Source: Octopus vulgaris (lineage: Eukaryota). Taken from it: a stretch of 64,000 nt of DNA. Below are positions 5,242-56,225 of the stretch, piece by piece (position 1 is the first letter of the stretch; each line of letters starts with the position of its first letter). The stretch is taken from assembly GCA_951406725.2 (NCBI GenBank), contig OX597842.1, positions 13,888,001 to 13,952,000 of the forward strand, written 5' to 3'. A model generated the notes under the pieces. That model did not search any database, was not told where the DNA came from, and worked only from the letters and a program-made list of their open reading frames with translations. A program made the position numbers and the translations under genes.

Positions 5242-5313
5242 AGTTCTTCTAAATTCGGAAGGTTTTCGAAGGTACCGCGTTGAATATACGTGATATTATT
5301 GTCATTCAAATTC
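5242..5313 (-). CDS. LRR exon (72 nt): NLNDNNITYIQRGTFENLPNLEEL
   Basis: Acceptor ttttatgttacag|, donor |gtgagt; open frame. Confidence 0.88.
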
Positions 5314-5912: not shown

Positions 5913-5943
<31 letters not shown>

Positions 5944-7403: not shown

Positions 7404-7475
7404 AGTTCTTCTAAATTCGGAAGGTTTTCGAAGGTACCGCGTTGAATATACGTGATATTATTGTCATTCAAATTC
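7404..7475 (-). CDS. LRR exon (72 nt), identical copy of 5242-5313
   Basis: Same sequence and splice sites, inside a ~2.1 kb tandem duplication. Confidence 0.82.
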
Positions 7476-8044
7476 CTGTAACATAAAACGGAGTTCATAA
7501 CAAACATATAGAAAAGATTAGTGACAAAATGTTAAATATTATGGCGAAAAAAATTAGATATAATTAAGAAATTTAAATGGAGATGATGATGAGAGGGACG
7601 GCGAGAAGGAAGAATATGAAGAGGAGGGAAAAAGGAAGAGAACAGAAGAAGACGGAAAATAACAGAAAAAGAAGGAATAGAAGAGGAAAAAGAAGGAAAG
7701 TAGAGGAGATGTAGTAGAGGAAGAACAAAAAGAAAGGAGAGAATGAAGAGTTGAAGGAGGAGGAGTAGAAAAATAAGAACTAGACGAGACGAAGGAGTAG
7801 CAGAAGTAAAAGATGAAGAAGAAAAGCAGCAACAAGAAGAAGATGACAAAGAAGAAGGAGAGAAAGAAAAAGAAGAGCAGAAGGAAAACAAAATAAATTG
7901 CGAAAGGAAAAAGAGGCGAAAGAAGACGATGACAACAAAAGGAAAGGGAAGAAGAAGAAGCAGCAGGAGCAGAAGCAGCAGAAGAAGAAGAAGGAGGAGG
8001 AGGGGGAGGAGGGGGAGGAGAAAAAGAAGATGAAGAAGAACAAG

Positions 8045-8075
<31 letters not shown>

Positions 8076-15403: not shown

Positions 15404-15475
15404 AGTGTTCTTAAACTGGACAAATATCGGAAGGTGTCAGGTTTGATTACTTGGATATTATTTCTAGAAAAGGTC
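15404..15475 (-). CDS. LRR exon (72 nt): TFSRNNIQVIKPDTFRYLSSLRTL
   Basis: Acceptor ttttatgttccag|, donor |gtaagt; open frame. Confidence 0.88.
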
Positions 15476-17536: not shown

Positions 17537-17608
17537 ATATATTCTAAACTGGGCAAATTTCGGAAGACGTTAGGTTTGATTTCCGTGATGGCATTACTAG
17601 CCAAGTCT
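17537..17608 (-). CDS. LRR exon (72 nt): DLASNAITEIKPNVFRNLPSLEY(M)
   Basis: Acceptor ttttctgtttcag|, donor |gtaagt; open frame. Confidence 0.9.
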
Positions 17609-19534: not shown

Positions 19535-21700
19535 CTCAAAGTAACTAGGGCGAATAACATTCTGGATCTCTGCTTCACGAACAATATGGACATCATTCAT
19601 GATGTGAAAGTGACACCGACATTAGTCTCGGATCACATCATAATAGAGCTGTCTATGCTTGGGTCGAAAATAAGCATAGACATACAGCCTAAAGGAAGCA
19701 CCCGAAATCTCTCCAATCTGAACTTCCACAAAGCATATTGGAAATCGATCCAAAAAGAGATCCTCAGAGAGGACTGGCCGAAATTTCTCTCCACACCAAA
19801 CCAACATCCCAAAAGAAGCGAAACGTCCCACCTAAAAACAACACTGATAGAGATCGAAAAAAGGCTGTAACAATTCTATGTAAGGGAGAAAGCAGACAAA
19901 GAAGCCTGGGTTATAAAACACATTAAATCAAAGGCAAAGGCCTTCTTTCATTACGCGAAAGAAACAACCTCCGTGCACTACAAGATAGGACTCCTCCTCC
20001 AAAAGGACGGCTCCCTCACAGAGAGTCCAACTAAGATCAGTGAGATGCTGAATGACCAGTTCAAAATTGTCTTTACCACCCCGTTGGAAAACAGAAAAGT
20101 GAACGAACCAGTGGACTTCTTTGCCGCCTCACCTATAACCAACGAAGCAGTTACGATAGAATACATTGACATTATCGAATAAGACGTACTACTAGCCACA
20201 GATGAAGAGGACACAAACACAACTGCTGGTCCTGATGGTTTCCCAGCAATCCTCCTCAAATTCTGAAAACATGCCCTAGCAAAACCCATCAAGATTCTCT
20301 TCCAGAACTTTCTTACAAATGGCAAACTGCCAAGCAAGCTGAAGGAGGGAATAATATGCCCAATACTTAAGGGGGTGAGTAGAGCAGATGCCAAAACATA
20401 TAGGCCTATCTCTATGACTTCACACATCAGCAAAGTCATGGAACGGATAGTTAGAGGGAAACTAATCGCATTCCTTGAAACAAATGACTTGCTAAGTGAT
20501 ACCAAACATGGTTTTCGACCAGGTAGGAGCTGCCTGACCCAGCTCTTACAACATTATGACTGGGTGTTGAAGCAGTTACTCAACAAATCAAATGTGGATG
20601 TAATCTACCTTAATTTTGCAAAACCTTTTGACAAGGTGGATCATGGCATGACATGCCACAAACTGCGTGACCTCGGCATAGCTGAAAAACTTGGAGTGTG
20701 GTTACATAACTTCCTGAAAGATAGGAGCAAGGCAGTAGTAGCTAATGGAGTCACCTCTATGAACACACAAATTGTGAGCGGTGTTCCACAGGTCACTGTC
20801 TTGGGACCACTGCTTTTTATAGTGGCCCTCTCAGATATGCCCTCAAATGCCCGGATAGCCACTCTGGCAAGCTATGTAGATGATACTAAAGTCTCACAGA
20901 AAATACAGAAGATCAGCTATGTCGTACACCAGCAGCAGGAGTTGGACTCAATTTACAGATGGGCTGAGGATAATAATATGCAGTTTAATGATGAAAAATT
21001 CCAGGCCCTGCGCTACCAGCATCCAAAACTGAATATTAAACCTACAGGGTACACCGGTCCACAGGGAATTTCAATCCCAGAGCCTAAGTCAGTGAGGGAC
21101 CGTGGTATCGACATGAGTGAGGATACCTCTTTCCAAGTGCACATTACGACTGGCTGGATGGATCCTAAGAACATTCAGAACCAGAGATAAGGAAACCATG
21201 ATGGTCCTCTGGTGGATATTCGTCCTCAGCCGCCTGGATTAGTGCCCACAGCTATGGTTACCCACCAGTGTGAGATTAACAGCAGATCTTGAAGCAATCC
21301 AGAGAAGATTCACAAAGAAGATCGTCTCTTTGCAACAGTTCAGCGACTGGGAACGGTTGAAACAGCTAAGACTCTACTCCCTGGAGAGAAGACGGGAGGG
21401 GTGTGCAGTAATATATATCTGGAAGATCCTGGAAGGAATCGTGCCAAATTTTGGCATTGAAAGCTACACCAATGCCAGAACGGCATGACACTGCATAGTG
21501 ACAAAGATCCCAGCAACGCTATCATGCATCAGGACCAGTTACTGCTAGAGCCTGGGTTTCAAGGGCCCACAGCTTTTTAATATTCTCCCAAAGAGTCTGA
21601 GGAACTTGCACAAAGAAGATGTAGGGGTTTTTATATCAAAGCTAGGCCTCTTCCAGCTGAGAGTCCCAGATGAACCTAGCTCACGGCAAGTGGTGCAAAA
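19531..21700 (+). mobile_element. 5'-truncated, decayed CR1/L2-group LINE (RT)
   Basis: GPDG, YRPISMTSHISKVMER, VDVIYLNFAKPFDKVDH, SGVPQVTVLGPLLF, YVDDTK, LEAIQRRFTK, LYSLERRR; stops and frameshifts. Confidence 0.9.
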
Positions 21701-22149
21701 CAGGCGGAGAAGAAGAAAAAAAGGCAGGGTTAGATATGCTCTGGAAGTACATCTCTGTGTTAGATGAAAAACAGAAGGGGGAAATTATGGATACAGGGCA
21801 CTGAACAGGAAGTATGGTATTGATTATTAAAAGAGTCTGACTGTGGTAATGGAGGGACTGAAATAGCACTTTGTGCAAAGAAAGCAATGATGGTATGATA
21901 GTCCCAAAAAGAAGTCGCCCAGGAGAATAGTTTATTCAGAGTAGATAAGAAGAGGTTCTACAAATATTGAGAGTATAAAGTGGAATCAAAGTATTTCCTT
22001 ATTTGACGTAATCCCTATATTTAAAGGCTTCCTTAATTCGCGAGTCGAGCGAGTATGTCTTGGCAACATATCTAATGCTTTTACTAATTCCTTCAGGTGC
22101 CTTTGTATTTCCGAGCAGACATAGATATACTTTTTTATCTCCAACCCTA

Positions 22150-22300
22150 ACCCTAACCCAGCTGTCGCATCCAACACTTGACTGGTACACATTTACAGCT
22201 GAGTAGACTGGATCATTCCTGATCAACGTCCCAAACACCGAGCTTAGTTCAAGAACTGAACCAATCACATTATGATCATGCAGCGACATGCTAATCACTG
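22150..22300 (-). mobile_element. Degenerate tRNA-derived SINE (duplicate at ~29455-29605)
   Basis: Minus strand shows A/B-box-like head (cagtgattagc...ggttcagttc) and the ccagtctactcagctgtaaatgtgtacc body motif. Confidence 0.5.
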
Positions 22301-23447
22301 TATCATATCTTTCACACACACTGAGGTACTACAAGTAGAAACTGATGCCAACAGCTCAAATGCAGCCCAAAACAATTTTCCCCTCTCATCAACAAGTCAC
22401 TGGATCCACGCTCAAATCATATCCAGTGATATGGTAGTTTTAACGGTCAAAACATCGGATTTAATCTATTGGCTGAAGCTAAAATCCCAGAGATAGGAAC
22501 AGATTGCAGAAAATGATAGAATATCATAAATTGCCTGACAAGAAATTCAAAGTTGTCTCTTGAATAAAGTCCAACATCCTTTCACACAAAAACATCTAAA
22601 AATCTAAGGATTCTGGCAGCCATAATGAATTCTCATCTCTTTTGATCATGAAGGAAGTCACTTTTGAAGAAGAACATCATTATAGGAGAAAGTAGATCCC
22701 GTGTATATCTAGGACGGAATTTATAAGACAATGTTTTTTTCTTTTTAGTACCAGAAAATATTTCAATCCTAACAACTCCCACTTTTTGACGCTCAAGTAA
22801 CCAAAGTAAGACCACTCTTTTTATTAACATTCCTTCAGTAATATTAACCGCTATGTTTATTTCTTCATCCTCAGAACATCGGATTCCGGAATGTCCTCCA
22901 TGTTCCTGTCTTCTTTCCGGCGGGGATTTATCTGTAATAATTTAAACGGAGCATTACCATCATCACTCTCACCCATATCACACAACCAGCGAAATTAATG
23001 ATCTCTACTTCTTCTTCAAAACGCAGAAAGTAAAAACAATTGGGATTTGAACTTAAAATACAAAGAGCTAGAAAATTTCCATACGAAACCCAATCCCACA
23101 TCCCTACACTTTGTTTCGTCCACTGGCCTCTTTAAGTACGCAAAAAGCCGTAAGTTAAGGACATCCTCGGCTAGATTTTAAGTTGGAATACTGAATGCCA
23201 GATTAAATACCACAAGGTGTAATTCAACTTGATGACCTGCAGGTTCGGCCAATTTTTGACTAAATTATGAATTAAAATTTCTAAATAATATATATCGTAT
23301 ATTCACCATCTGCAGATATACGGATTTCTATTTAATTCAGACAATCCCAAATGTGTAGAGAATCAAGTGAATTCGCTTGAATCGATCGAATATAATATTG
23401 GAATATTTTATTTAAACTGGAAACTTGAAATATTTATTGCCATATAA

Positions 23448-23592
23448 CTTTTTCTACTGTAGGCACAAGACCCGAAATTTTGGAGGAAGGAAAGTCGATT
23501 AGATCGACCCTAGTATGCAACTGATACTTATTTTATCGACCCCGAAAGGATGAAAGGCAAAGTCGACTTCGGCGGAATTTGAAGTCAGAACG
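23448..23592 (-). mobile_element. SINE fragment with Meta-domain-like core (duplicate at ~30764-30908)
   Basis: Minus strand ttcaaattccgccgaagtcgactttgcctttcatcctttcggggtcgataaaataagtatc. Confidence 0.7.
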
Positions 23593-24165
23593 ATTAATGC
23601 AATATAATACAAATCCTTTAATCTGAAATAATACTCAGGAAGAGTCGAACCCTCTCTGTACAATCTAGGGTACTTTTCAGTTGAACTGTAACAGAGAGAT
23701 CAGCTAAATCATAAGCTTAAAGAATTTTGTAGAATTATAACTAATGTGTTTTTATTTCGAAAAAGGTATCGGGTTTATGATATCACCCTAAATTTTACCG
23801 ATGACGTCTTTAATAAAAAATGAGTTTCACGAAGAAAACGAAAATGATGACAAGAAGAAGAAGACGATGACAGATGCAAAGTAGAAGATAAAAAAAGGAA
23901 AATGAATAAGAGTGGAAAAAAATATTAGTGTGCAGATAGTGCAAAAGAAAAATTAGAAGAAGAAGCAGAAGAAGAAGAAGAAGAGGAAGAAGAAGAAGAA
24001 GCAAAAGAAGAAGAAGAAGAAGAAGAGGTAGTAGGAGAAGAAGAAGAAGAAGAAGAAGAGGTAGGAGAAGAAGAAGAAGAAGAAGAAGAAGAAGAAAAAG
24101 AAGAAGAAGGAGAAAAAGAAAAAGAAGTAGGAGAAGAAGAAGGGGAAGAAGAAGAAGTAGAAGAA

Positions 24166-24210
<45 letters not shown>

Positions 24211-24730
24211 TAAGAATAATAATGAGAAGAAGAAGAATGAGAAAAAGAAGTAGAAGAAGAAGAAGAAGAAAATAATAAAAATAATGATAATAATAATAAT
24301 AATAACAATAACAATAATAATGAGAAGAAGAAGAAGAAGAAGAAGAAGAAGAAGAAGAAGAAGAAGAAGAAGAAGAATTAGTGTATGAATAATCTACTTC
24401 TAAATATACAATTAGATGTAATATTAAATGATGTGAATTAGCATCGATCTATCGATCTAGAGGTAATCACCGTACATAATGTGCATATCGTATTACACTC
24501 ATATATGAATGCACTTCTTCAGACACAGACGCAAATACATGCATTTGCTGAAAAGTTTCCTCTCAATTCTCACCCTTTCCTATATGCCATATCTTATACA
24601 TGGGGCTTCCCACTCTTTAACACACAATTACAGAAAGGTGGAGGATCATATAATCAAGTAAGGGACGATATTACAAATATGGAAATATATCAGCAATGAT
24701 ATACTATAAATAAAAACTGATTTGACTTAC

Positions 24731-24802
24731 AGCGTTTCCAAACTGGTCAGGTTTCGGAAGGTTTCAGGTTTTATTTCCTTCAGGTTAGTTTGGTGCAAAT
24801 AT
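24731..24802 (-). CDS. LRR exon (72 nt): YLHQTNLKEIKPETFRNLTSLETL
   Basis: Acceptor ttttatgttccag|, donor |gtaagt; open frame (consensus N replaced by T). Confidence 0.88.
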
Positions 24803-24864
24803 CTGGAACATAAAACTGAGTCAAGATAAAACTTTATGGAACAGGTTTTTGGAAGTATATAACA

Positions 24865-26529
24865 CTAGCAGTATCGCCCGGCGTTGCTCGGGTTTGTAAG
24901 GGAAATAACTATATAAGCATTTTTAGAGAGTTATAGCCAAAAAATAGCAAAAACATGCATCAAAAATGGAAAAAAATTAAGGTAAATTTTTTATTTAAAT
25001 CGTTGACACATCGTAGATATTTTTAGAGAGTTACTTCCCTTATATAATAGCGAAAAATGCATTAAAATGGAAAAATATGATGGTAATTTTTTTTTAAATC
25101 GTAGACTCATCGTAGACGCGCGCTAATACCCAGAAGGGCTCGATATGGATCACGACTAAAAGATACCCGCTTTTGGTTAAACTGCACCGCAAAATGTGGG
25201 AGTAGTTACGAATCTAAATCGTAGGAGACAGACACACAACTTCACTTTTATATATAAAGATATAAACCACGTAGTTATATACACATACTTTGTTATATAC
25301 ACATTCTTAAAAGAAAATGTTATTTTGAACACAACATTTATAAAGAATAAAATATTTTTTGGTTTTTCTTTTAAAAGGATGAATACATTTATTAATAACT
25401 ATATATAAGTGTCGTCTGTTTATACATAAACAGTGTTTCATACTGCAATTATATATACATATATCTATATATAATATTATATAATAAAATACATACAGAA
25501 TATGTGTATATATTTATGTATGTATAAATATATACTGAAAGAAGCTCGGCTCGCCAATTAATACTACCAAAATTTAACGACAGAAAGTAAATTAAAAATC
25601 AATTTACCTTTTCTGTATTGTTATGGCAATTCGACCGTCGGTGTGTTTTTGCAAATGTGTTCGAATGAGAAGTGAGTTGTGTTTGGCGCCTTTTTTACTA
25701 AGAACAAACACACACGTGTTTGTATGTAGTTGTTTGAAACGTTTGTGTTTGTCACTGTCATATATGTATGTGTATGCGTGTGTGTGAGGAATGGCAAACC
25801 AGATAGATAGCGCGCGAATTTCTTTTGAAGTTCGCGCTCCGCTTGTGTGTGTGTGTGTGTGCGTGTTTTAGGTGTACGTAGGTATGTGTACTCTCTCTGT
25901 CTCTTTACACACACTAACAAAAGCACTTCACTTAGACACCACACTTTCTGTGTCGCACAGCCCATCAAACACACACACACACTCACGCACGCACACATGT
26001 ACATCAATGCTTTCGGAGTGAAATGTTAAAGTATTGAGTTTTCTCGAATTTTGTCTTAATTGGGGGTGAAATTGAAAGAAATTTTGTATGGCATGACCGA
26101 ATGGTAGTACTTTGAAAAATCATAGGTAAACTCTAATTGAAGAAATTGTGTGAGGAGTAAATCGTTATGTATTTCTTTGTTTCTGTTTGCTGTGTTTTTT
26201 TTAGTAGTGGTTTAAGGTACACTTGCAAAGAGAAAGTGGGAGAAATTGGGGTGATAGCGTGAGTGAAGCAGATCGCTCCGTTTTTGAGGGTGTGCGTGTG
26301 TGTGTGCTGTAGCCCACACTAAGAAAAGCACTTCACTTACACACCACAATGTGAGTTTTCTCTAAATTTTGCTTAATTGGGGTTGAAATTTTAAAAACCG
26401 GACCTGGCACGACCCGATGCATTCTACTCTTAAAAATGCTAGGCAAATTGTAATGGAAGAAATCCTATATTGTAGATTTCTATAAGAGACAAAGGGAGGC
26501 AGATAAAATCTGCCTTTTATAATAAGAGA
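24865..26529 (-). mobile_element. Composite non-autonomous Helitron insertion
   Basis: 5'-TC...hairpin cccgagcaacgccggg...CTAG-3' inserted at A|T; the empty site is present in the sister duplicate at ~32590; a second 5'-end-like motif lies at ~25260. Confidence 0.82.
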
Positions 26530-27097
26530 TATTTCGACTAAAGAATTAGACTATGGAAATCATGAAGAGTTGATTACGGTTCTGTTGAAATTGATAATGA
26601 TGATGATGATGATGTTCAAATTTGTGCAACTAACTGCGGTTGTCTATGGTAATGAATAAAGTTGATGATGAACCTGACAACGTTGACGCCTGAGAGAAAG
26701 AATAGTGTTGCGGAGAATAGTCTCGGTAATAATGATGGGAACGAAGAACGTTTCGGGGACCACTACCCTGGGATGATCATGAAGCAAGCAAGCTTGTAAT
26801 TGTGCACGCACGTGTGTATGCAAGCATGTGTGTATGTGTGTGTGTTTCTGTGTGCGTGTGTGTGTTAACTCAATATTTAAACATGAAGAACGAAGACTAT
26901 TACATCTTCAAAATTTATTTGTTGAAGCATTTTCTTCATATTACATTCATTGGTTAATCAGCCCAAGATTTCCTCAGGGTGCTAAAAAGTATCTGCTCGG
27001 ATTTCAAATCCCTATTCCATTAAGTTACATATGTGTGTGTGTGTGTGTGTGTGTGTCTGGCTGTGTGTATATATGTATGTATATGCATATGTATATA

Positions 27098-27988
27098 CGA
27101 GGGGATACACAAAAGTAACCGTAAATGTTCTCTGGAAGACAAACCCGTTGTAGTTCAGGTTTCCGTCGCTAAACTCCAATTGATGCGACTGTCAGGCATC
27201 AGTCAGCCAACCGGCGTTATCCGGTAGTGTTGTACTGCCGCGTAGTTCGTCTTTGTTTTGACGTGTTTCTGCTCAGTTCGTAAGTTTTTTGCAATGGCTG
27301 GAACGAAGGAACATTGTGCATCTGTGAAATTCTCTTTACTGCTGCTGAAAACTGCAGATGAAACAATTTTCATGCATCCCATCGCAAGGATGATGCAATG
27401 GGCAAAGCACAAGTTTATGAATGGTTTTCACGATTTAGAAATGGTCACTTGTCGATTGAAAACTAACCTCATTAATGACAACCGTCGACCTCCCGAACAT
27501 CATGAAAATTCATGATCTGATCCTGGAGGACCGTCACTGAGCAATTGATAAAATTGTTGACATGTCGGTTTTGCCCTGGAGCTCCTGCCAATGAATTTTG
27601 TGCGAGGAATTGTGAATGAAAAGCGTTCCAGCAAAATCTATGCCTCGTTTGCGCATGGAATGTCAAAAACAGTCACGGCTGAATGCGTGTCGTGAGCTAG
27701 AAGAACGATTATGAGATAATACGAAATTTTTTTCGAAGGTCATCAATGGTGACGAAAGCTGGTGCTACGGAATTTGAAGATGTTGAAGTGAGGAAAGAAA
27801 ACGATGGGGGCGTTAAAAAGCATCACTTCGGAATAGGTCCAACACTGATTCCAGTAGCTGAAAAGGCGCCTGCAACGATGCATTGATTAAAATGGAAAAT
27901 ACTCTGAACACAATAAAAATATAAATATGTAAAACTAAGTGAATAATATAATACTTCAAAATTACGGTTTCTTTTGGGCACCGCCTCG
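27098..27988 (+). mobile_element. Internally deleted mariner with imperfect TIRs and TA TSD
   Basis: TA|cgaggggatacacaaaagtaaccg ... cggtttcttttgggcaccgcctcg|TA; GDESWCYG and KRRLQRCID remnants. Confidence 0.88.
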
Positions 27989-30900
27989 TATGTATGTACA
28001 CACAAGCGGCTAAGGCCGAGCTTCCCTGGGATTATTAATACCTAAAATAGATATTATCTCATCATTTCCTTATATTTTGGGTAAACTGTTGTTTAAAAGA
28101 TGCCAAGATGCCGAAAATCCTCAGTTTGTCTGTGAATCTTAATTCACTGTGAATTGCAAATACACAGAACATAACAAAAAACTAAAATACACTTTACTTT
28201 TATATTTATATTTTCTGTGGTAAATGTTTTTAGAACACGCTACAAATTTTCAAAATATCTTTAAAGTAATTGCTTTTCTAACAAGTAAAATTTACAATGA
28301 CTAACGTAGTGCTTGAAGTATACAATGTTCTTATTTTTCCCTTGGTAGCAGACAAGTGGTGAAGATCTCAATCTCGAATGTCGGCTGGCAGGCTAAGACT
28401 TCATAGTTTTTATCTTACAGAATATGACTTATTGTACTCTGTACCTTATATATCTTCCCCTTTGCAACTGTACTCCCCATAACAAGGTGTTCTACACCCA
28501 TAACCCTTTAATTACTAGATTTACTTTGATTGTGAAATGATGTTAGGCTTGCTAATCATCATCTTGTAGGGAAGATTTAATAATTGTGTTGTCATCACTT
28601 TTCATTCGACAATTCATGAGTTCTTTTGTCTTTATTGGTCCATTTCGTTATACCTAGTTTTATTAAATTCTCATGCTGTTATATATCTATAATTATAGAC
28701 ATATCGTTAAATGTCACTAATTACAATAATATTTATGTATTACTGATGCTACCGATTCACATATTAATGATAATTTAGAGCTCAGGCATTCAAAGTTGAT
28801 ATTATTTCTGTGTGCATGCATTTTTGTATTGATGACTTTTACGGTTGGCGCTGTGATTAATTGTTTGAATGATAGGCCATATTTTGGGCCACAACCGATT
28901 GTGCCTTTTGTTTATCCCCACAAGAATCGATTCCAGATGAAGAAATAATTATAGGTATAAGTCAGTTTCATTATTCGGTTGGTACATAACATCTATGTTA
29001 GCTAAGTCTAAAAGCGTTAGCGGTAATACATTTCGGAAACTACATAGAAGTCCCTTTGTCTAGCTTCGTATCATTGTCACCATTGGCCAATGACTGACTT
29101 TCTCACTGAGACTACACCGCTGTCATATTGTTTCCCACGGCTTCGCCTGTAACCGTAGACTGTGTGGAAGATGGGTGATACGCTGAGCCAAAGGGCAGCT
29201 GTGTTTGCGCCAACAAAGTATTTCCTTATTTGACGTAATCCCTATATTCAAAGGATGTTCCATTGTCCACCGCCTGGTAACCTACCGAATTGTAGATTCT
29301 CACTCAAGATTTACTCATTCACACACACATTCATAGCCATCCTTAATTCGCGAGTCGAGCGAGTAATGTCTTGGCAACATATCTAATGCTTTTACTAATT
29401 GCTTCAGGTGCCTAAGTATTTCGAGTAGGGATAGATACACTTTTATGTCTCCAACCCTAACCCAGCTGTCGCATCCAACACTTGACTGGTACACATTTAC
29501 AACTAAGCAGACTGAATCAACCTTGATCAACGTCCCAAACACCGAGCTTAGTTCAGAACTGAACCAAACACATTATTATCGTGCAGCGACATGCTAATCA
29601 CTGTGTCATATCTTTCACACACACTGAGGTACTACAAGTAGAAACTGATACCAACAGCTCAAATGCAGGCCCAAACAAGTTTCCCTTCTCATCAACAAGT
29701 CACTGGATCCACGCTCAAATCATATCCAGTGCTATGGCAGTTTTAACAGTCGAAACATCTCAGCTCAGATTTGATCTATTGGCTCAGGCTAAAGTCACAG
29801 AGATGGGAACAGATTGCAGAAAATGATAGAATATCATAAATTGCCTGACAAGAAATTCAAAGTTGTCTCTTGAATAAAGTGCAAAATCTTTTCCCACAAA
29901 AACATTAAAAAATCTAAGGATTCTGGCAGCCATAAAGAATTCTCTTTTGTTTTCTTTGGGTCATGAAGGAAGTCACTTTTGAAGAAGAACGTCACTGTGG
30001 CGGAAGATCCCATGTATATCTAGGACTGAATTTAAAGTCATTTTTTTTCTTTTTAGAACCAGAAAATATTTCAATCCTAACAACTCCCACTTTTTGACGC
30101 TCAAGTAACCAAAGTAAGACCACTCTTTTTATTAAGATTTTTTCAGTAATATTAACCACTATGTTTAGTTCTTCATCCTCAGAACATCGGCTTGTGGAAT
30201 GTCCTCCAGGTTCTTGTCTTCTTTCCGATGGGAATTTATCTGTAATAATTTAAACGGAGCATTACCATCATCACTCTCACCCATATCACACAACCAGCGA
30301 AATTAATGAGCTCTACTCCTTCTTCAAAACGCAGATTTGAAGTGGGATTTGAAATTAAAATACAAAGAGCTAGAAAATTTCCATACGAGACTCAGTCACA
30401 CATCCCTACACTTTGTCTCGTCCACTGGCCTCTTTAAGTACGCAAAATACGTACGTTAAGGACGTCCTCGTCTAGATTTTAAGTCAGAATACCGAATGCT
30501 AGGTTAAATACCACTAGGTGTTACTCAACTCGACGGCCTGCAGGTTCGGCCAATGTTTGATTAAATTATGAATTAAATATAGAAAATTAAATATTTCTAA
30601 ATTATATATATCGTATATTCACCATCTGCAGATATACGGATTTCTATTTAATTCAGACTATCCCAAATGTGTAGAGAAGCAAGTGAATTCGCTTGAATCG
30701 ATCGAATATAGTATTGGAACATTTTATTTAAACTGGAAACTTGAAATATTTAATGCTATATAACTTTTTCTACTGTAGGCACAAGACCAGAAATTTTGGA
30801 GTAAGGAGAGTCGATTAGATCGACCCTAGTACGCAACTGTTACTTAATTTATCGACTCCGAAAGGATGAAAGGCAAAGTCAACTTCGGCGGAATTTGAAG

Positions 30901-31708
30901 TCAGAACGATTAATGCAATATAATACAAATCATTTAATCTGAAATAATACTCAGGAAGAGTCGAACCCACTCTGTACAATCTAGGGTACTTTTCAGTTGA
31001 ACTGTAACAGAGAGATCAGCTAAATCTTAAGCTTAAAGTATTTTGTAGAATTATAACTATTGTGTTTTTATTTCTAAAAAGGTATCCGGTTTATGATATC
31101 AACCTAAATTTTACCGATGACATCTTTAATGAACATAGGTTTCATAATACCGGACTATTTTACATGTTTCATTTACGTAATTTCTGAGTCAGGCAATTTA
31201 AGCGGATCTCGTAATTATCTGCAGTTTAATTAGTCTAAAAGTATCACATTTAATTGTAAACGTAATAATTAACGTAATATAGACATGCAATAATTAACTG
31301 TCATTCTCTTACTAAATCACTTAATATCAATATAACTGTAACAATAAACATTTTAAGTTTAGGAAATGATGTTGCGAAATGCGGCACCCGGGGGGCAGCC
31401 CAGCAAGCCAATTTGATTAAAGTGGAGGAAATAGGCATACCCGGCCGGATTATTTGCGTAAAGTGGTTCTTCGTTGCCAGGTTCATTTCGACTCCTCACA
31501 TGGCATCATTACACCGATGTCTTCGTTGACAATTCCACACTGTATGCAGTTCAACGTCGTCTGATCTCACACCAACTGTTCAAATCACCCAACTCTCATC
31601 TGTAACCCTTCCCATCGCCTAACTCTTGTCCGATTTTTAATTACCCACAAGGGTCTAACATAGAGGGACAATACGCACGTTTGGGGACAATTAACATATG
31701 AAAGAACA

Positions 31709-31755
<47 letters not shown>

Positions 31756-32456
31756 AGAAGAAGAAAGAAGAAGAAGAAAATGGAGAAAGTGCAGGACGAT
31801 AAGATGTGGAAGAAGAGAAAGAAAAACAAGAATGGTAGGACAAAAACAACATCAAATCAACAACATTAAAACAATATTAGAGGAAGTAGAAGACGAAAAC
31901 GGAGACGAAGAATGTGTAGGAGATAATAACTAATACGATGAAACGAAGGAAACGAAATTGATGAAAAGAAGAAGAAGACGAAGAAAAAGAGGAGGAGTAA
32001 GAAGAAGAATAGGAAGGAAGAGGAGAGGAGGTAATGAAGATGAAGTGGAAGTAGAAGTTAAAGAAGAAGAAGAAGAGAAGGAAGGAGGTGAAAATAAGTA
32101 GAAGAAAGGAAGAAGAAAGGAACAAGAATAAGTCCAAGAAGAATTTTAGAAATGAGTTTTATAAATGACGTAGTTCTAAATGTACAAATGCCATCGGTAT
32201 TGAAGCATGTTATTTAGCGTAAACACCAGACATATTATCCATACCGAATGATAGACACAGGTGAATAGGGATTTGTATGTTTATAGTGATGATGAACATA
32301 GTGTTGATGCTGATGATGTTGGTGGTGAAGTTTCTCTTGTCGATGATGATGAACATACAATACCGTGTGAAAGGAAAATGACGAGAGTGAGCGAAATTAC
32401 AAACATGGAAATATATCGGCAATGATATACTATAAATGAAGATTGATTTAACTTAC

Positions 32457-32528
32457 AGTTGAGTTAAATTGGTCAAATATTGGAAGGTTTCTGGTTTGAT
32501 TTCAGTAAGATTATTACGGTTCAAATAT
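32457..32528 (-). CDS. LRR exon (72 nt): YLNRNNLTEIKPETFQYLTNLTQL
   Basis: Acceptor ttttatgttccag|, donor |gtaagt; open frame. Confidence 0.9.
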
Positions 32529-33094
32529 CTGGAACATAAAATTGAGTTAAGTTGAAACTTTATGGAACAAGCATGTGGCAGTACAAAACAATTTTCGAGT
32601 AATGAATTAGACTATGGAAATCATGAAGAGTTGATTACGGTTCTGTTGAAATTGATAATTGATAATGACGATGATGTTCAAATTTGTGCAACTAACTGCG
32701 GTTGTCTACGGTAATGAATAAAGTTGATGACGAACCTGACAATGTTGACGGCTGAGAGAAAGAATAGTGTTGCGTAGAATAGTCTCGGTAACGATGATGG
32801 GAACGAAGAACGTTTCGGGGACCACTACCCTTAGATGATCATGAAGCAAGCAAGCAAGCGTGTGTTTGTGCACGCACGTGTGTATGTAAGCATGTGTGTA
32901 TGTATGTGTGTTTCTGTATGCGTGTGTGTGTTAACTCAATAGTTGAACATGAAGAATGAAGAATATTACATCTTCATAATTTATTTGTTGAAGCATTTTC
33001 TTCATATTACATTCATTAGTTAATTAGCCCAAAATTTCCTCAGGATGCTAAAAAGTATCTGCTCAGATTTCAAATCCCTATTCCATTACGTTAC

Positions 33095-33147
<53 letters not shown>

Positions 33148-33187
33148 TGGCTGTGTGTATATATGTATGTATATGCATATGTATATA

Positions 33188-34077
33188 CGAGGGGATACAC
33201 AAAAGTAACCGTAAATGTTCTCTGGAAGACAAACCCGTTGTAGTTCAGGTTTCCGTCGCTAAACTCCAATTGATGCGACTGTCAGGCATCAGTCAGCCAA
33301 CCGGCGTTATCCGGTAGTGTTGTACTGCCGCGTAGTTCGTCTTTATTTTGACGTGTTTCTGCTCAGTTCGTATGTTTTTTGCAATGGCTGGAACGAAGGA
33401 ACATTGTGCTTCTGTGAAATTCTGTTTACTGCTGCTGAAAACTGCAGATGAAACAATTTTCATGCATCCCATCACAAGGATGATGCAATGGGCAAAGCAC
33501 AAGTTTATGAATGGTTTTCACGATTTAGGAATGGTCACTTGTCGCTTGAAAACCAACCTCATTCATGACAACCGTCGACCTCCCAAACATCATGAAAATT
33601 CTTGATCTGATCGTGGAGGACCGTCGCTGACAATGGATGAACTTGTTGACATGTCGATTTTGTCCTGGAGCTCCTGCCAAAGAATTTTGTGTGAGGAATT
33701 GTGAATGAAACACGTTCCAGCAAAATCTATGCCTCGTTTGCTCACGGAATGTCAAAAACAGTCACGCCTGAATGCGTGTCGTGAGCAAGAAGAACGGCTA
33801 TGAGGTAATCTGAATGTTTTTTCGAAGGTCATCACTTGTGACGAAAGCTGGTGCTACGGAATTTGAAGATGTTGAAGTGAGGAAAGAAAACGATGGGGTC
33901 GTTAAAAAGCATCACTTCGGAATAGGTCCATCACTGATTCCAGTAGCTGAAAAGGCGCCTGCAACGATGCATTGATTAAAATGGAGAATAATTTGAACAC
34001 AATAAAAGTGTAAATATGTAAAACTAAGTGAATAATATAATACTTCGAAATTACGGTTTCTTTTGGGCACCGCCTCG
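33188..34077 (+). mobile_element. Duplicate copy of the mariner at 27098-27988
   Basis: Same TIRs, same flanks; copied by segmental duplication. Confidence 0.88.
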
Positions 34078-34530
34078 TATGTATGTACACACAAGCGGCT
34101 AAGGCCGAGCTTCCCTGGGATTATTAATACCTAAAATAGATATCATCTCATCATTTCCTGATATTTTGTGTAAACCGTTGTTTAAAAGATGCCAAGATGC
34201 GGAAACTCCTCAGTTTGTCTATAAATGTTAATTTACTGAGAATTGTAAATACACAGAACATAACAAAAAACTAAAATACACTTTACTTTTATATTTATAT
34301 TTTCTGTGGTAAATATTTTTAGAACACGCTACAAATTTTCAAAATATCTTTAAAGTAATTGCTTTTCTAACAAGTAAACTTTTACAATGACTAACGTAGT
34401 GCTTGAAGTATACACTGTTCTTATTTTGCCCTTGGTTGCAGACAAGTGGTGAAGATCTCAGATTTGATATTTAGGATGTCGGCTGGAAAGCTAAGACTTT
34501 ATAGATTTTATTTTACAGTATATGGCTTTT

Positions 34531-36084
34531 TTGAAAGGTGATGAAGAAGGCAACTTTTGTGTGCAGAGGCAAGAAATTTGATACGGTGGAGGTTAGGTGC
34601 GCAACAAAATATTGTGCGGCCTCGCTAGCTACCACCGTACTTAGAGCCGAAAACTTCATCATGTGGCCTACTTACAAAAGGAGAAGAGGGGTACGGGTCA
34701 AAATCCCAAATATACACCCAGAATTGAAGACAGAATGGCTGGCAACAGCCATCCTAGGGTCAGCTGAGGAAAGAGATAGAAATTGGCTCGATAAAGGAGA
34801 CCAACATCGTGAAATGGAAGGGATTCGGGGTTGACGGCCACAAACAGAGATATAGAACGGATTCCCTTCCAAACAGAAGTAGAAGATGGAAAAGCCCTCA
34901 GCGTAATCGTGGAGGGGAGGAAGCCTAATTGCTACTTGTGCGGGACAAGAGGACACATAAAAAAAGAATGTCCGCTATACGAATTCATGGCGGAGTGTGA
35001 AAGAGCAGAGGAATGACAAAGAACCCGAAGACAGGAACAATACACTAAAGGAGAAAGAAAGCAAGGAAAAGTAAACAACGGTAAAAGGAAATAACAATAC
35101 ACGGAAGGAAAATGAAAACAACGGAATAAATTAATAGAAAAAGAACAAAAGTCACAGGGTAGAGAAGTAATAGAGAAAGAACCAAAGCAAAATCAAGAGA
35201 AAGAAAAAGAAAGTAAAAGAGGAAAAAAACAAGAGAAGGAACAGAATCAAGAGAAAGGAAAGGATGTTACACAAAAAGAAAAAACAGGAAAAAAATACGA
35301 CAGACAAAGAGCCAAAAAGACAAGAGAAGGAAAAAGAAAGGGAAAGAAAAAAGAGAGAAAGAGAAAAACCGGGAGAGGAAGGTAAAGAAGAAGTCAATCC
35401 GAAGAGGAAACTAAAGAGAACATAGGTCCAAATAGAAGGTATAAATTTTATGGAACATTGGTTCAATACAGACACTGTGGGGGAGATGGAGGAAATAATA
35501 AGTGAAACAGAGGGATATTCACGGGTCAGGATGGGCACGGAGTGGAGGGAAACGGGTGCACTGGTCCATGAAGACAGCGCCGATGCGTTTATCGAGGCCA
35601 CCGGTGTGAACGTAGTAAGGCATGCGAAGTGCCGACTGGTAAGATACCCACGAGAGATGCAGAATTACAACGACCTGACAAAGGTAATGGAACTGATTTA
35701 AAATTATAGGAAAAAAAAAGAATTAGAAAAGACTTTTGTTAATTTCAAATGTACTTTGAAATCTTGAAAATGTATTATGAAAGCGTTATATTTGAATTTG
35801 TGGAAAACAATTTTTCTGTAAAATATTCAATTGATAATGTATTTTGGAAATTCTCTTTGGAAATTTATTGCGATCGAATGTATTGCGAAATGCTGTAAAA
35901 TGTATTTAGTTATTTTTGAAAATATTGTAAAATGTAATTAAAAATGACGAAATGTAACCACCTGATTTCGGGGATCGGGTGGGGCATTACACCACATTTA
36001 TACATACTTCATACCTCATTAATTTAATTTTTTTCCCGATTGTACTGTCCCCTCTATGTTCACCCCTTGTGGGTAGTAATAAAA
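34531..36084 (+). mobile_element. Element A: 5'-truncated ORF1-only (half-L1/Tx1-like) retroelement
   Basis: RGKKFDTVEVR...RVKIPNIHP...VEGRKPNCYLCGTRGHIKKEC (CCHC knuckle), K/E-rich linker, stop at 35701, 3' UTR with shared tail and AATAAA; no ORF2. Confidence 0.8.
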
Positions 36085-36560: not shown

Positions 36561-39500
36561 GGGAAACAAGCTAAAACGTAGAACTTCGCAGCCGCCGCTA
36601 GACGGAAGACGGAATAGATTAAAATGGAGGACACAGAATACAAAAAATACAAAAATATGTTTGTAAGGGAGGAGAATAATATAAAAGCCACCCTCCCAGA
36701 AGATATTAAAAATGAAACACAAAGAAGGATAGTGATTTACAAATCATTTGTAATAAAAGAGAAAAAAATCAAAAAAGTAACTAAAGAACAGGCAGAGAAG
36801 TGCCTGCAACCAATATGGCAAGACATAGATTTCGTGACATGGGGCAAAAAGTACGCCACAATAATGGTCTATTTTAAGAGCGAGCAAATGGCATGAAAGC
36901 ACTCGCTAACCCCATTTAAGGCGAGTGATATTGTTCTCTTGCTTTCCTATTTGGGGCAGAGGTCTGCCAAAATAAGAATCGAGGTAAAGTGGTTTCTTCC
37001 AGCCTTACTAATAGGGCTGGAAGAAAAAATAAGTGTTATAGAGATAACAAAGATCAGGATGGAAAACTGGAGAGGTCAAACTCTTCAAGTGACAGTACAG
37101 GCGGCCCTAAAGACATTGGAGGAGATCGCAGAAAATATCAATTTCAGCAATGAAATAAATTTGCGCGTGGTGGTGGAGGCCCGAAAGCCTCGATGCTACG
37201 GATGTGGTGAGAAAGGCCACATCCGTATAGACTGCTCCACCCGCAAGAAGAAGAAGAAGAGAAAAAAAGGACGGAAGCAGAGGAGAAGAGGAAAAAAGAG
37301 ACGGTGGAAGAGAAAACAACAGAAGAAAATGCCTTCACACTGGTGAAGCAAAAAAAAAACACCAAAAGGAAAAAAATGAAGACTTAAACCCACCCACCCC
37401 ATGCACAAGCAAAAAGAAAAATAACACACAGGGGAGAACATTTACCCCACCCAACCACGGTTCCCCACAAAAGAAAAGAAAGAGAAGACCCTCCCAACCC
37501 AACCCGAACAACCACTCCCACCCCTACCTCCCAGTGTCGAACAATTCCCTCCCCTCCCAAACTACTCCCCACCGTCCACCCCATCACCCCCACGAAGCCC
37601 AAAGAAAAAAATGGAAGGTTTAGAGATGGTGTACATCTCAATAAACAAAGATAATGATAGGTTGGTGAAACTTATTGATGAAGTCCCAACAGCGGAAAAA
37701 ATTCAAACTTACAGGGTATTGCCCAAAAATGTAGAAGTGTGTAAGATCGACATGTTAAATTACAACATTATACATGAGGAATACCCAAAATACATTAAAG
37801 GTCCGTGTCTCGACTTGCATGAGTCGTTGTATAAAGCGGACTTCCCCCCACGACCAACGGAAAAAAGGAAAACCAACTAAAAGGTAGGTGATGGCTCGTA
37901 TTCATGTAGGGTGCATAAATGTGCGTCGCCTGGTGTCGAATTGGAAGCAAGGGCGCCCCCTAAACGACATCAGGTCACGGGATTTAGATGTTGTTGTTGC
38001 CACAGAAACCTGGTTAAAGGGGCCAAGAGATCCACTCCCGCTGTTTGGCGGTTACGAGAGAATTATCTCTCCGAGCCGTCTGTCCGGCTGAAGCGGGGTG
38101 TTGGTCCTGTGTAAAAAGAACCGGGTTTCTGAGAAAAAGTTGATTTTTTTCAGATCCAGAAGGTAGACTGGCCTTCGTTGATTTGACGTTCAGTAGTCGT
38201 AAGACAATCAGGCTGGTTGCGGTTTACGCACCCCACAGTCAAGGGGAACAAAGTGATTATTTTCGGAACCTTGGAAAGTTTCTGAGTACATCGCATCCTT
38301 TAGTTGTTTTAGGAGACTTCAACACAGTCTACGATGTGCGGGTAGACTGTGAGGGCTCGCGAAGGAAAGGAAATGCTTGCTTCCAGGATCTACTAAGACG
38401 TTTCGAGCTGGTAGATCCATATAGAATGGAACATTCGAACGCTCCATTGTGGGCATGGTCAAACAGCGACGGATCTATCAAGTCGTACATAGACAGGATA
38501 TTAATTAGAAAAGTAGATAAGACACTAGCTAGGAGTCCACAGCTCCACATGGTCAGCTACAGTGACCACAAGATGGTCAACTGTAGGCTAGACATAGATA
38601 GGACGAATAGAGGTCCTGGTTACTGGAAACTTAATACGTCCCTTTTGGCGATTAAGGATAAGGTTAATGATTCAGAGGGATTTGACTGGAACAATAATTA
38701 ACAACATATGGTGGTATGCCCTCAAGCGAGCCATCAGTTATGAGTCCATTAGATATAGTATAGATCTAGTAGCTAGAGAGGCTAGAAGGGAATCAGCACT
38801 AGTTAAGGACTTAGAGCAAGCAATACGAACTGGCACGGCAGCCCAGGTGAAGGTCAAGAGACTGGTTTTAAACCAGCACCTCGAAGCCAAACACATGGGT
38901 TGCATTGTCAGGGCTAGACAACGTGCAATGGGGAGCGAAGGAATTAATGCCGCGAGATGGGCCGCAGTGGTGGAAGCCCAACGTGGCAACGATGCCACAA
39001 TTCGATCTTTGACGAACCAACAAGGTAAGTTGATAGACGAGCCCGAGGTGATGTGTGAAGCTTTTCAGGACCACTTCGCCCAGCTCTTTAGGGGGAGCGG
39101 CGGACCGGATAGGAGGAGAGGCCTAACGGACCTCCTCGACGGGCTGCCGCGCCTCTTGGAGCAGGACGTGAAGTGTAGTGAGAAGCCGATCACGCCTGGG
39201 GAAGTAATAGAAGCCATGGCTGACTGCGGCGCGGGTAAGGCTCCAGGACTGGATGGTCTACCCTACGAGCTTTATAAAAGTATGCCGGACTTGTTCGGGG
39301 TCTTACTGGCGAACGTCTACGCGAACTGGCAGCAGAATGGGTTTATTCCCAGATATGTGCGCCGCGGAGTGGTGACACTAATCAGGAAGGACCCGGACAA
39401 GGGGGATGACATTGATAATTTTAGGCCCATCACTCTGCTTAACGCAGAGCTGAAGATTTTGGCCAAAGTGTTATCGAACAGATTGGCGCGTGTCGCGGAT

Positions 39501-40794
39501 GGACTAATAGGGAAGGCACAAACGTGTGCCGTACCTGGCAGGTCCATTCACGATAATCTCCATCTAATTAGATACACTATAGAGGGAATTAATAGCGATC
39601 CCGGCAAGGGAGGGGTAGTGGTCCATTTAGACCAATCAAAAGCTTTCGATAGGGTCGACCATCATTACCTGGTGTCTGTTCTGGCTCAGTTCGGCCTGGG
39701 TCTTGGCTTCCTCAGGTGGATCATCGAAATGTACGATAACGTCGACTCGGTAGTTCAGATGAACGGCTTTATTTCTAAGCCGTTCAGAGTCAATGCTCGG
39801 GTCGTCAAGGATGCCCACTCTCCCCGCTTTTGTACGCAGTGGCTCTCGAGCCGCTGCTGCGAAAACTGAGTGGCATCCCGAGGCATCCAGGTTGTGGAAT
39901 GTTCGTTTCGGCGTACGCGGATGACATCACTATCATCGTGACTGAAGTGGACCTCCTACGTAAAGTAGGCAAGGCCATAGAGGTTTACGAGACGGTGACA
40001 GGAGCAAAAGTTAATCGCGAAAAGTCAGTCGGCTTGCAGCTCGGCACCTGGAGAGGCAAGTCGATGCCTTCAGACAGCGTCGTGGGACGTTGGACGGAGG
40101 GTCCGATAAAGTTGCTCGGGGTTTGGTTCGGACCAAAATAGAGAAGAACTGGAGCGAGGTATCGAGCAGGGTTGCTGCGGTAGCCAAGACCTGGTGTTAG
40201 CGGTGGTTTTCCCTGAAAGGTAGGGCGGAGGTAGCCAATGTGTTTATCGCATCGGTGATCACCTATGCCTTACCGTCGTGCCTTGCCCGGATTCGTGTTT
40301 GACCAAGTTGGAAAGACAGCTCTTCCACTTTTTGGGGAAGAGCTCGAAACCCCTTGTGAAACGCTCTGTTTGTTGTCAAAACCCGTTGAAGAGTTGACTA
40401 GGGATGCCGTGGTTAATGATGCGCAGAAATGCGCTGAGGTTAAGGCATCTGTGGCTCCATCTGGTCTCCGTTGGCGAAACAGATGTTTCCCAAGTTCACC
40501 AGTTTTGGTGGACGGGAAGCCTGGTATAATCGCAGGTCGAAGTTGGATACATGGTATACGGAGTGTCGCAAGGCACTCCGACTATTCCGTCGCTCGGGCA
40601 ATGCCTGCGGCAGTGGTTCTACCGCTGTTTTCTATAGAGGGTTTGTAGAGGCCGGTTGCGATGATACGTTAGGGGAAACCCTAGGTTTCGAAGATAATCA
40701 GCTGTCCAGTCTGTTCCAACGTACATTTGGGCCGAGGTCCCTGGATAATTTTCAGAAGTCCTTAGCTTGGCAGTGTTACCGAGGAGCCTTACCT

Positions 40795-41191
40795 TTACTC
40801 TTTTACTCTCTTACTTGTTTCAGTCATTTGACTGCAGCCTTGCTGGTGCACCACCTTTAATCGAGCAAATCGACCCGGGACTTATTCTTTGTAAGCCCAG
40901 TACTTATTCTATCGGTCTCTTTTTGCCGAACCGCTAAGTGACGGGAACATAAACACACCAGCATCGGTTGTCAAGCAATACTAGGGGGACAAACACAGAC
41001 ACACAAACACACACATATATACATATACACGACGGGCTTCTTTCAGTTTCCGTCTACCAAATCCACTCACAAGGCTTTGGTCGGCCCGAGGCTATAGTAG
41101 AAGACATTTGCCCAAGGTGGCACGCAGTGGGACTGAACCCGGAACCATGTGGATGGTAAGCAAGCAACTTACCACAGAGCCACTCCTGCGC
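40795..41191 (-). mobile_element. Full-length tRNA-derived SINE resembling octopus SINEs, inserted in element B ORF2
   Basis: Head gcgcaggagtggctctgtggtaag (A box) ... gggttcagtccc (B box); short (gagtaaaa)-type tail; the RT-distal sequence resumes on both sides. Confidence 0.88.
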
Positions 41192-41853
41192 AGGCAGGGT
41201 GGCCAAGTCAGCCCGACCTGTCCGAGGTGTGGGCGAGACAGGGAAACCGTCTCGCACGCGGTCGTGCAGTGCTCGGAGGTGGCAGACATGTGGGTTTTTG
41301 CCGAACAACTGTTGTCAAGTGGAGGAAGAGTACAGCTATCGACTGAATCCATTGTAAAATCGACCCACCGGATTTCTTAACGAAAGAAGATAAGAATTGT
41401 TTTCTCTCTGTGGTTTCAATTGCGAAACAAGCAGTATGGAAGACGAGGATGAAAGAGGTGATAGCAGGCAACTTCATCTCTGGTTCTAATCTGGTGGAAT
41501 ATTTTAAATTCCACCTAAAAAGACAAACAGAACTAGAGAGGAGGGGCCTGAGAAAGAAAGTGTTCGATGAAAGATGGAAGAATGTTGTGAGTAAAAGGCC
41601 CCTCATGAATGAAAGGTAAGCCGGAAAAAAAAGAAGAAAAAACCTAAGGTCAGTTTCGTGGCGGTTATCGTGGGGTCCGTAAGCCCGCCCCACTCCATCT
41701 GTGAAATTGTTTGTGTAAAAAATGTCCTATCATCCGAATTATATAATCATGTGTAAATTTTTAATAGACCCCAACGCACATTCTTGTAAAAACATTCGTG
41801 ATGTTCTGTCTTTATATGTAAAACCGTATGGTGAATAAAGAAATAATAGTTAA

Positions 41854-43634
41854 CAATTGCAGTCTTCATTGAGTGTGTGTTGTTAGTTGTGACAAGACGG
41901 TGAATTTTTTCTGTGTGTAAATTGATTTGGTATCGCGCGAGGCGTTTGCCTCCACGTGTGGAGACCTTCCGAAGAAGGTGAATTGACCCTCTAGTCATGG
42001 CGACTTACGCGGGGGGTCACCGGAAAAAAAGCGATTCGTCGCTAATAGTAAGGGAGGTGTTCTTTGAGAAGGAGAAACTCAAAGAATATGAAAAGCTTTT
42101 CAAAAGGGAGCGTGATAGCGTGAAGCTAACCCCCCCCCCCGCGAAAGCAAAAGAGGATAAAGAAAGCAAGACGGTGACATATAGAACCCAAGACAGGAGT
42201 ACGAAGAAACTGGCAAGAGTGGAGATAGACGAAATTGAGAAATGTCTGGGAGACATAATGGGAAAAATAACTTATGTGAGTAGAGGCAAGAAATTTGGTA
42301 CGGTGGAGGTTAGATGTGCAACGGAGGAAGTTGCGGCATCACTGGCTACCACCGTACTAAGAGCCGAAAAATTCACAATGTGGTCCTCATACGAGGGAAA
42401 AAGAGGGGTTCGGGTTAAAATCCCGAATATACCCCCATAAGTGAAAACAGAATGGCTGGCAACAGCTATTCTAGGAGCAGCAGAAGAGGAAGTGGAGGCG
42501 GAATCAATTAAGGAGTCCAACGTGGTAAACTGGAGAGGATATGGGGTAGAATTGTGGCTGATGGCCACAACAGAGGATATTGAAAGGTTTCCCTACAGAA
42601 TTGAAATTGAAGAGGAATAAACCCTCAGCGTAATTGTAGAGGGAGAAAACCAAACTGTTACTTGTGTGGGACAAGGGGGCACATTAAAAGAGAGTGCCCG
42701 TTATATGAATTCGTAGCGGAGTGCGAGCAGGAACTTGAAGAAAAGAAGAATACTGTAAATAAGAAAGAAAGCATAGAAAAGGAAAGAAAACAACAAGAGA
42801 AAGGAAATAATAAGTCAATGAAGGAAAAAGAAATAAAAGAAAAGGAAGAAATAGAACCAAAACAGAGTCAAGGAAAAAAAAGGATAAAGAAACAATAGGA
42901 ATAAAACAAGAGAGGTATCAGAATCAAACGAAAAGAAAGGACGGCACACAAAAGGAAAAAGAAAATACAGGAAAGGAACATAAAGCACGAGAGAAAACAG
43001 ACAAAGAGCCAAAAAGACAAGAGAAGGAAGGAGAAAGAAAAGAAGGCAAAAAGAGAGAAAGAGAGAAACAAAGAGAGGAGAACAAGGAAGAAATAAGCCC
43101 GAAAAGGAAGATGAAGGAACACGCAGGACGAAACAAGATTACTATTACTACAAGTTAGTAACCTACCATTTCTGCCCTGTAATGAATGACTTGACAAGTA
43201 AAACGGAGGGACATGTATGGGTCAACAGGATGACCGACCGGACGGGGGAGACTGCTCTTATCCCCGAAGAAAGAGCCGCTGAGTTCTTCAGAGCTGCCGG
43301 GGAAAATGTAATATTTTTCACGAAGGCTCGAGTGAGAGAGCGGCTACCTGAGGATTCAGTGATGGACTTCAGAGAAGTAGAAACAATCATAGAATATGTG
43401 TAACATTGTGAGAGGAAAAGAAAAAATAAATTGGTGAAATATATGTGATAAAACTGACGAAAATGTAACCTCTTGATTCCGGGGATCGAGTGGACATTTT
43501 CATCTCATTGTAAATATTCTTTCATATGTCATTATTACTTTTATTTTTTCCTTTTCTTGTCATTCGCTTTCTTATTTTAAGTTCCCCGATTGTGTTGTCC
43601 ATCTCTGTGTTAGCCTTTATGGTAAATAAAAAAA
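41854..43634 (+). mobile_element. Element C: apparently complete ORF1-only (half-L1/Tx1-like) retroelement, paralog of A
   Basis: 5' UTR, ORF1 41997-43403 with stops/frameshift (RGKKFGTVEVRC, CYLCGTRGHIKREC), 3' UTR with shared hairpin, tail and AATAAA; no ORF2. Confidence 0.82.
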
Positions 43635-56184: not shown

Positions 56185-56225
56185 ATAAATATTTGATTTA
56201 CACTGCGTTAAACTCCATTTATTTA

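Follow-up and report, generated by a model that had tools for sequence, protein, structure and literature searches.

The region analyzed here is a window of 64,000 nucleotides of the Octopus vulgaris genome (2.8 Gb), C29:13888001-13952000; positions given without a contig prefix are those of the window. Two of its exons, e1 (24731-24802) and e2 (32457-32528), both on the minus strand, bounded by AG and GT, 72 nt long and of phase 2, were singled out in an original prediction as differing far more from each other than the introns around them. Judging from sequence, each is a predicted one-repeat exon in the 12-exon leucine-rich repeat (LRR) arm of an octopus adhesion G-protein-coupled receptor (GPCR) gene. 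The LRR_8 family is matched by e2 with an E-value of 2e-4 and by e1 with 0.005, the e2 match being below the curated cut-off as expected for a single repeat. One-repeat exons of 72 nt are frequent in animal LRR genes, so that the exon size alone is ordinary.

The gene occupies about 140 kb of the minus strand and is predicted to encode, in this order, a signal peptide with LRRNT (exon at C29:13978146), the LRR exons, LRRCT (C29:13882504, outside the window), a cysteine-rich region, a GAIN-like region, the GPS and the seven-transmembrane (7TM) region. The order was obtained by tblastn with named octopus adhesion GPCRs that contain LRRs, every domain of which mapped in order. The GPS (C29:13845402-13845683) is recognized by PF01825 (56.1 bits, cut-off 22.5), and its exon contains an HL/TSF motif that appears to be of the cleavage type; the last 7TM exon is recognized by PF00002 (7tm_2; 40.4 bits, cut-off 20.6) and the earlier transmembrane exons by tblastn. 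The junctions checked among the signal peptide/LRRNT, LRR and LRRCT exons are all of phase 2 and mutually compatible. Scanning 214 kb with the exon profile detected 12 intact and two broken LRR exons, and none on the opposite strand. The broken ones, at C29:13954468-13954567 and 13969051-13969095 of the same gene, comprise one without the donor GT and one that is 5'-truncated.

Relatives are annotated as 'adhesion G-protein coupled receptor G6-like'. The annotated protein of this very gene is not among the five matches obtained, the best of which is 84% identical, and when the 7TM exon of a neighboring paralog was used as the query, all 12 matches were adhesion GPCRs of octopus, with LRR families present in four. 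No ROC-COR domain was encountered: the C-terminal part consists of the GPS and 7tm_2, and no ROC or COR family was found in the relatives. Among the annotated isoforms of two related genes (three and two proteins, respectively), none skips an internal LRR exon, all differences lying elsewhere; this speaks only weakly on any alternative use of the repeated exons. The 3' end of the next adhesion GPCR paralog lies on the same strand at C29:14026374-14030010, about 48 kb upstream of the first coding exon, and is a 100% match to the annotated P0012.

In the direction of transcription, e2, which belongs to exon type T2 (framework ETFQYLTNL), is preceded by an acceptor-side block (32593-34531) and followed by the T2-specific donor-side intron P2 (32131-32391; 96-98% identity among full-length copies in T2 cassettes). 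Behind P2 are a GAA-rich tract (31700-32143) and block L (29329-31133), a portion of the long intron from T2 to the next exon that is present in many cassettes. The acceptor-side half of the same long intron, R2-M-R (26532-28433), is located in front of e1 and includes, at about 27096-27971, what we take to be a mariner-like remnant. Between this block and e1 there is a 1.66-kb insertion (24864-26531), presumably with Helitron-like ends, which occupies the same site in the T1 cassettes C29:14512095 and 15621328, and partly in 15654947. The exon e1 itself is of type T1 (framework ETFRNLTSL) and is followed by the T1-specific donor-side intron P1 (24380-24665; 92-98% identity among P1 cassettes), a GAA/AAT tract (23830-24379) at the end of which P1 joins block L, and a second copy of block L (21985-23817). 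All these elements lie on the minus strand except for the two tracts and the insertion, which are unstranded.

An ungapped comparison of e1 with e2 gives exactly the 22 differences in 72 nt that had been claimed. The nine amino acid differences were likewise recovered over the 23 whole codons, the split codon being the same, and six codons differ in a purely synonymous manner. The proximal flanks are intermediate, as predicted, with 7/65 mismatches on the donor side and 11/62 on the acceptor side. The long flanking blocks, put by the original prediction at about 90% identity or better, differ in global alignments by 7.1% (22019-23817 against 29329-31133; 126 mismatches in 1773 aligned columns) and by 5.3% (26532-28433 against 32593-34531; 101 mismatches in 1901 aligned columns). 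At the pooled block rate of 6.2%, the binomial probability of 22 or more differences in 72 positions is 2e-10, and the exon lies outside the range of its flanks, given that no window of 72 columns in either block contains more than 12 mismatches. The reversal of the usual order of exon and intron conservation is thus real for this pair. The donor-side introns (23818-24665 and 31134-32391) show 28% mismatch and 48 gap openings and are not alignable as recent copies; because of this and of the 1.66-kb insertion, the two cassettes are collinear in pieces only. The 22 differences include eight type-diagnostic ones in the framework (codons 10-21), 10 in codons assigned below to the concave face, and four in codons 5, 7 and 8.

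What the comparison with further copies does not support is the premise that e1 and e2 are sisters from one segmental duplication; they belong to two old exon types. The cassette family comprises at least 22 copies on two contigs, C29 (13.9-15.7 Mb) and C9 (114.1-114.4 Mb), and was sampled in part, through 60 stretches chosen by matches to e1, e2 or their flanks or by adjoining the window. Of 34 exons considered, 12 are of older types and were kept out of the 22 scored cassettes; P2 is the donor intron in 14 of the latter and P1 in eight. Three additional loci (C29:14502256, 14588254 and 15654947), frameshifted or atypical, failed the exon pattern and were left unscored; they are e1/e2-family exons of 73 or 71 nt or without the conserved Phe, and might be pseudo-exons. 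In the tree of the exon and 63 donor bases, the 22 cassettes split 7 versus 15 (support 98/93) with e1 and e2 on opposite sides, as they are in all 200 bootstrap trees checked, and the approximately unbiased (AU) test rejects a clade of the two (p-AU 0.0009). The exons closest to e1 (12 nt differences) and to e2 (8 nt) are both found in other genes. Codons 9-21 differ by 4.9% within the types and by 21.8% between them. The corresponding distances are 5.6% and 5.8% for block R (compared in 15 of the 22 cassettes), and 8.3% and 7.9% for block L (11 of 22), so that the flanks are indifferent to the type of the exon that they surround.

The long intron recurs in arrays in the order P2-GAA-L0-L-J-R2-M-R, of which R and L are the two halves. 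The window contains one whole copy between e2 and e1; in addition, e2 is preceded by a surplus R half, and e1 is followed by a surplus L half. The far 2.2 kb upstream of e2 (the first 22 bins) differs by only 2.7% (59 mismatches in 2198 columns) from the DNA that precedes the T1 cassette C29:15621328, and the block before e2 was therefore likely borrowed from a T1 cassette. Conversely, block L is missing at the equivalent place in two C9 genes with a P1 exon, and the copy behind e1 was thus likely borrowed from a T2 intron. The T1/T2 homology around the exon extends over 348 bp with 84% identity. Further exchanges at these exons are indicated by C9:114391287, where an exon with the T2 framework is joined to a P1 intron, and by a 50-bp duplication next to the acceptor in two T1 copies. 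At two loci, there is a T1-T2 two-exon unit that holds both window cassettes as pieces. A fixed ancestral unit of this kind with reciprocal deletions was our first model, which was given up as only one possible history, since the order T2-long intron-T1 also occurs. A match of the flanks through independent transposon insertions was rejected because the R and L matches are full-length almost only at cassette loci and keep one order.

The variation that is not explained by exon type is concentrated in a few codons. When e1 is compared with its true sister C29:14512095, the exon contains 12 differences in 72 nt, and the next three bins contain 0 in 300. Among the T2 cassettes (10 of the 14 with P2), codons 1-8 have a diversity of 0.314 and codons 22-23 one of 0.467, as against 0.023 for codons 9-21 and 0.019 for the 66 intron bases that follow the exon. 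By the LRR consensus, the exon would begin inside the LxxLxLxxNxL motif, with codons 22, 23, 1, 3, 4 and 6 corresponding to x2, x3, x5, x7, x8 and x10; these six codons are predicted, mostly from this consensus, to form the concave face. In the model of the relative P0016, the strands would run over x3-x7, in a part of moderate confidence.

The six codons were fixed before a held-out set of 58 exons from 18 other clusters was fetched. Exons were assigned to one cluster when their donor introns differed by no more than 6%, 21 of the 98 exons being singletons that were not used, and the counts are tree-free minimum numbers of changes per site. In the held-out exons, concave replacements amount to 0.272 changes per site, compared with 0.057 in the introns and 0.041 for framework replacements; the concave rate is 4.8 times that of the introns, and the silent rate of the exons is 1.07 times that of the introns (P 0.78). 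The concave codons contain 72 replacements and 15 silent changes, a replacement/silent ratio of 4.5 (P 1e-9). Codons 1, 3, 4 and 23 (x5, x7, x8 and x3) account for 66 of the 72 replacements, with 22 replacements and no silent change in codon 1, and 14 and none in codon 23. Because silent sites evolve at the intron rate, local hypermutation is argued against, and the excess in the concave codons likely reflects diversifying selection instead. The same codons differ in contigs of all four independent runs (four studies, three species labels): over 601 bases, 18 of 40 listed differences (68 more are present beyond these 40) fall into the 72-nt exon, each of them in all four runs. Given that run contigs mix paralogs and alleles, this shows the variants to be real, without thereby showing polymorphism.

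Separately, a very young run of LRR cassettes was observed at C29:14878829-14888877, spaced by about 1.25 kb in its last part; three of its exons are identical and the others differ mostly at codons 1, 3, 4 and 23.

In our view, it is quite probable that e1 and e2 represent two old types whose flanks were matched by unequal crossing-over, with the codons of the binding face under diversifying selection. The two exons would then differ more than their surroundings because old types were likely brought to common flanks by recombination and because the binding face is selected; of the readings offered in the original prediction, two are supported, each for part of the 22 differences: diversifying selection, and swapping of the exon or its conversion by another cassette. 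One crossover within the approximately 350-bp T1/T2 homology at the acceptor site could have placed a T2 exon behind a T1 flank, and a second one, at the GAA tract, could have placed block L behind a T1 exon. The symmetric phase of the exons would keep the products of such crossovers in frame, and replacements on the concave face might subsequently have been fixed by selection from a varying ligand. The exon junction cuts through the beta-strand, with x2-x3 contributed by one exon and x5-x8 by the next, so that a new strand would result whenever an exon is gained, lost or swapped.

Several observations weigh against this reconstruction. The order of the crossovers comes from one assembly and is not unique, given that T1-T2 and T2-T1 both occur. 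Within the clusters of T1 and T2, the silent rate is 7-8 times that of the introns, which shows that mixing of old lineages was added there, and such recombination inflates the apparent selection; the concave replacement/silent ratio in these clusters is only 2.2-2.5 (P 0.04 and 0.008). The P values are optimistic because the 6% cluster rule caps intron divergence and because some clusters are parts of one family. The case for selection comes from a counting method rather than from a recombination-aware codon model or a likelihood site model. The P0016 model is poor overall (mean pLDDT 41.9, with 58-86 in the LRR part and low confidence outside the first 100 residues), which is why the concave assignment is drawn mostly from the LRR consensus. 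Finally, according to the accessible text of Ritschard et al., 2019 (PMC6408891), no single site in this expansion was found to be positively selected.

An unlikely alternative is that ongoing gene conversion homogenizes the introns of the e1 and e2 cassettes while selection shields the exons, producing a peak of divergence of the kind described, in the part of the paper available, for the red/green opsins (PMC3924837). The silent excess in the T1 and T2 clusters would fit such a process, as would the 60 nt before the acceptor, which are a patchwork with a diversity of 0.08-0.13; these two features indicate that short exchanges do occur in the family. However, the flanks of e1 and e2 are not nearest copies: their distance equals the family average in both blocks (R, 0.059 versus a mean of 0.057; L, 0.080 versus 0.082), and the DNA upstream of e2 is closest to another gene, so that homogenization between these particular introns, one of the options originally proposed, is not supported. 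Moreover, extra intron homogenization is unneeded in the held-out set, where silent sites evolve at the intron rate. That e1 and e2 are nevertheless true sisters, all 22 differences having arisen by accelerated evolution of the exons, is hardly credible, even though the same two blocks flank each exon on corresponding sides and selection on these exons is strong. In addition to the AU test, this is contradicted by the six synonymous codon differences, by the fact that the eight framework differences are common to other T1 or T2 copies, and by P1 and P2, the proximal donor introns, which are not recent copies of each other. The distance and tree results refute a sister relationship unless the framework likeness to other genes is convergent, which the synonymous sites make unlikely.

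Diversification of the exon ends by a targeted mutator or by templated assembly, similar to AID or to the variable lymphocyte receptors (VLRs), appears highly unlikely. Codons 22-23 do form six-base islands of multiple changes amid near-invariant DNA, and the variable positions match those of VLRs as given in the accessible part of PMC3341825, but silent sites at or near the variable codons are not raised in the held-out set, and the assembly contains the whole gene, its exons being spliceable and no germline gap left empty. The region is a multi-copy array rich in simple repeats, and a collapsed repeat with errors of assembly or consensus might therefore be suspected; we give this next to no credence, considering that the differences obey codon structure and splice sites, that the window contains no N, and that the same alternative letters are present in the contigs of the four independent runs. 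For the flagged pair, ordinary recombination and selection are a sufficient explanation, and no new DNA-editing mechanism is needed.

By likeness rather than by a shared tree, the family likely corresponds to the octopus-specific group 3 of Ritschard et al., 2019 (PMC6408891), which in the accessible text is characterized by a GPS and adhesion 7TM domains, tandem clusters, branch-level positive selection and LRRs in five of 22 members, and is reported to be expressed in the skin, gills, suckers and axial nerve cord. That portion of the paper describes neither cassettes of LRR exons nor their swapping nor hypervariability of the concave face, and tables S2-S4 of the same work might bear on group membership and selection. 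Shuffling of LRR exons is known from the brown-algal ROCO genes (Zambounis et al., PMC3341825; Teng et al. 2024, PMC11378527), which, as far as the available parts of these papers show, share with the octopus gene the encoding of each LRR by one symmetric exon of 72 nt, the presence of dead exons among the intact ones (here two broken and 12 intact), variable repeat number and positive selection on the concave face (here by counts); alternative splicing is also reported there. The ROCO products differ in being cytoplasmic LRR-ROC-COR proteins rather than a membrane adhesion GPCR, which has no ROCO part, and the printed type I ROCO exon carries LxxLxLxxN whole, whereas the exon border in the octopus gene cuts the beta-strand. 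The lack of any opposite-strand LRR exon in the 214 kb scanned is a further difference.

The red/green opsin exon 5, to judge from the accessible part of PMC3924837, resembles the present case in that the exon exceeds the introns in divergence between paralogs and few residues are selected. In contrast to the opsins, we are dealing with a single-exon cassette among more than 20 copies, in which e1 and e2 do not form a true pair, and the excess in the other clusters is mostly new replacement rather than preserved old divergence. Divergence of exons over introns in duplicates was already known from the opsins. The VLRs also consist of LRR modules of 24 residues in which the framework is conserved and the concave residues vary. 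Unlike the VLRs, in which modules from flanking non-exon cassettes are somatically copied into a gene that is incomplete, the octopus gene is complete in the germline, with AG/GT-bounded in-frame exons and a 7TM region. The literature searched, which did not extend to subscription papers or the supplements of Ritschard et al., 2019, yielded no account of such LRR exon cassettes for the adhesion GPCRs of octopus.

As a rule, adhesion GPCRs are conserved receptors. We regard the product as a germline-encoded, fast-evolving receptor that would recognize a varying extracellular partner. Exon shuffling together with a concave replacement excess of about 4- to 5-fold suggests that octopus tissues exposed to the outside are engaged in an arms race or use a recognition code; among such tissues, the accessible text of Ritschard et al., 2019 allows one to count skin, suckers and gills. 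More tentatively, and with a good deal of doubt, the family might constitute a system of variable octopus receptors for recognition, with an adhesion GPCR as the base, in which one-repeat exons are swapped, gained and lost between genes, the binding face is driven by selection and, each binding strand being split across an exon junction, exon skipping multiplies the binding surfaces per gene, a counterpart by convergence of VLRs or Dscam that could serve immunity, self-recognition or sucker sensing. The four or five codons per repeat and the specific cassettes named above provide targets for tests. The case is also a warning that short exons in such arrays cannot be paired by their flanks.

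The remaining LRR exons of the gene in the window are all on the minus strand. Three, at 62603-62674, 57573-57644 and 56512-56583, are of older type. The exon at 17537-17608 is the next after e1 and is followed by that at 15404-15475, by two exons identical to each other (7404-7475 and 5242-5313), and by 160-231, the final LRR exon ahead of the LRRCT exon. The identical exons are borne by a 2.1-kb tandem duplication (4144-8392; 92% by blastn) that includes the GAA tracts. A long CTT/GAA-rich tract is present on the donor side of most LRR exons in the window and might be a recombination substrate for the whole array. Intronic reverse-transcriptase remnants (PF00078) are found at 20267-21187 and 37878-48790, the latter region containing two diverged tandem copies (37878-41702 and 45163-48790). 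Finally, 54290-54668 and 55862-56239 form an inverted repeat pair with 91% identity over 380 bp, 1.2 kb apart.

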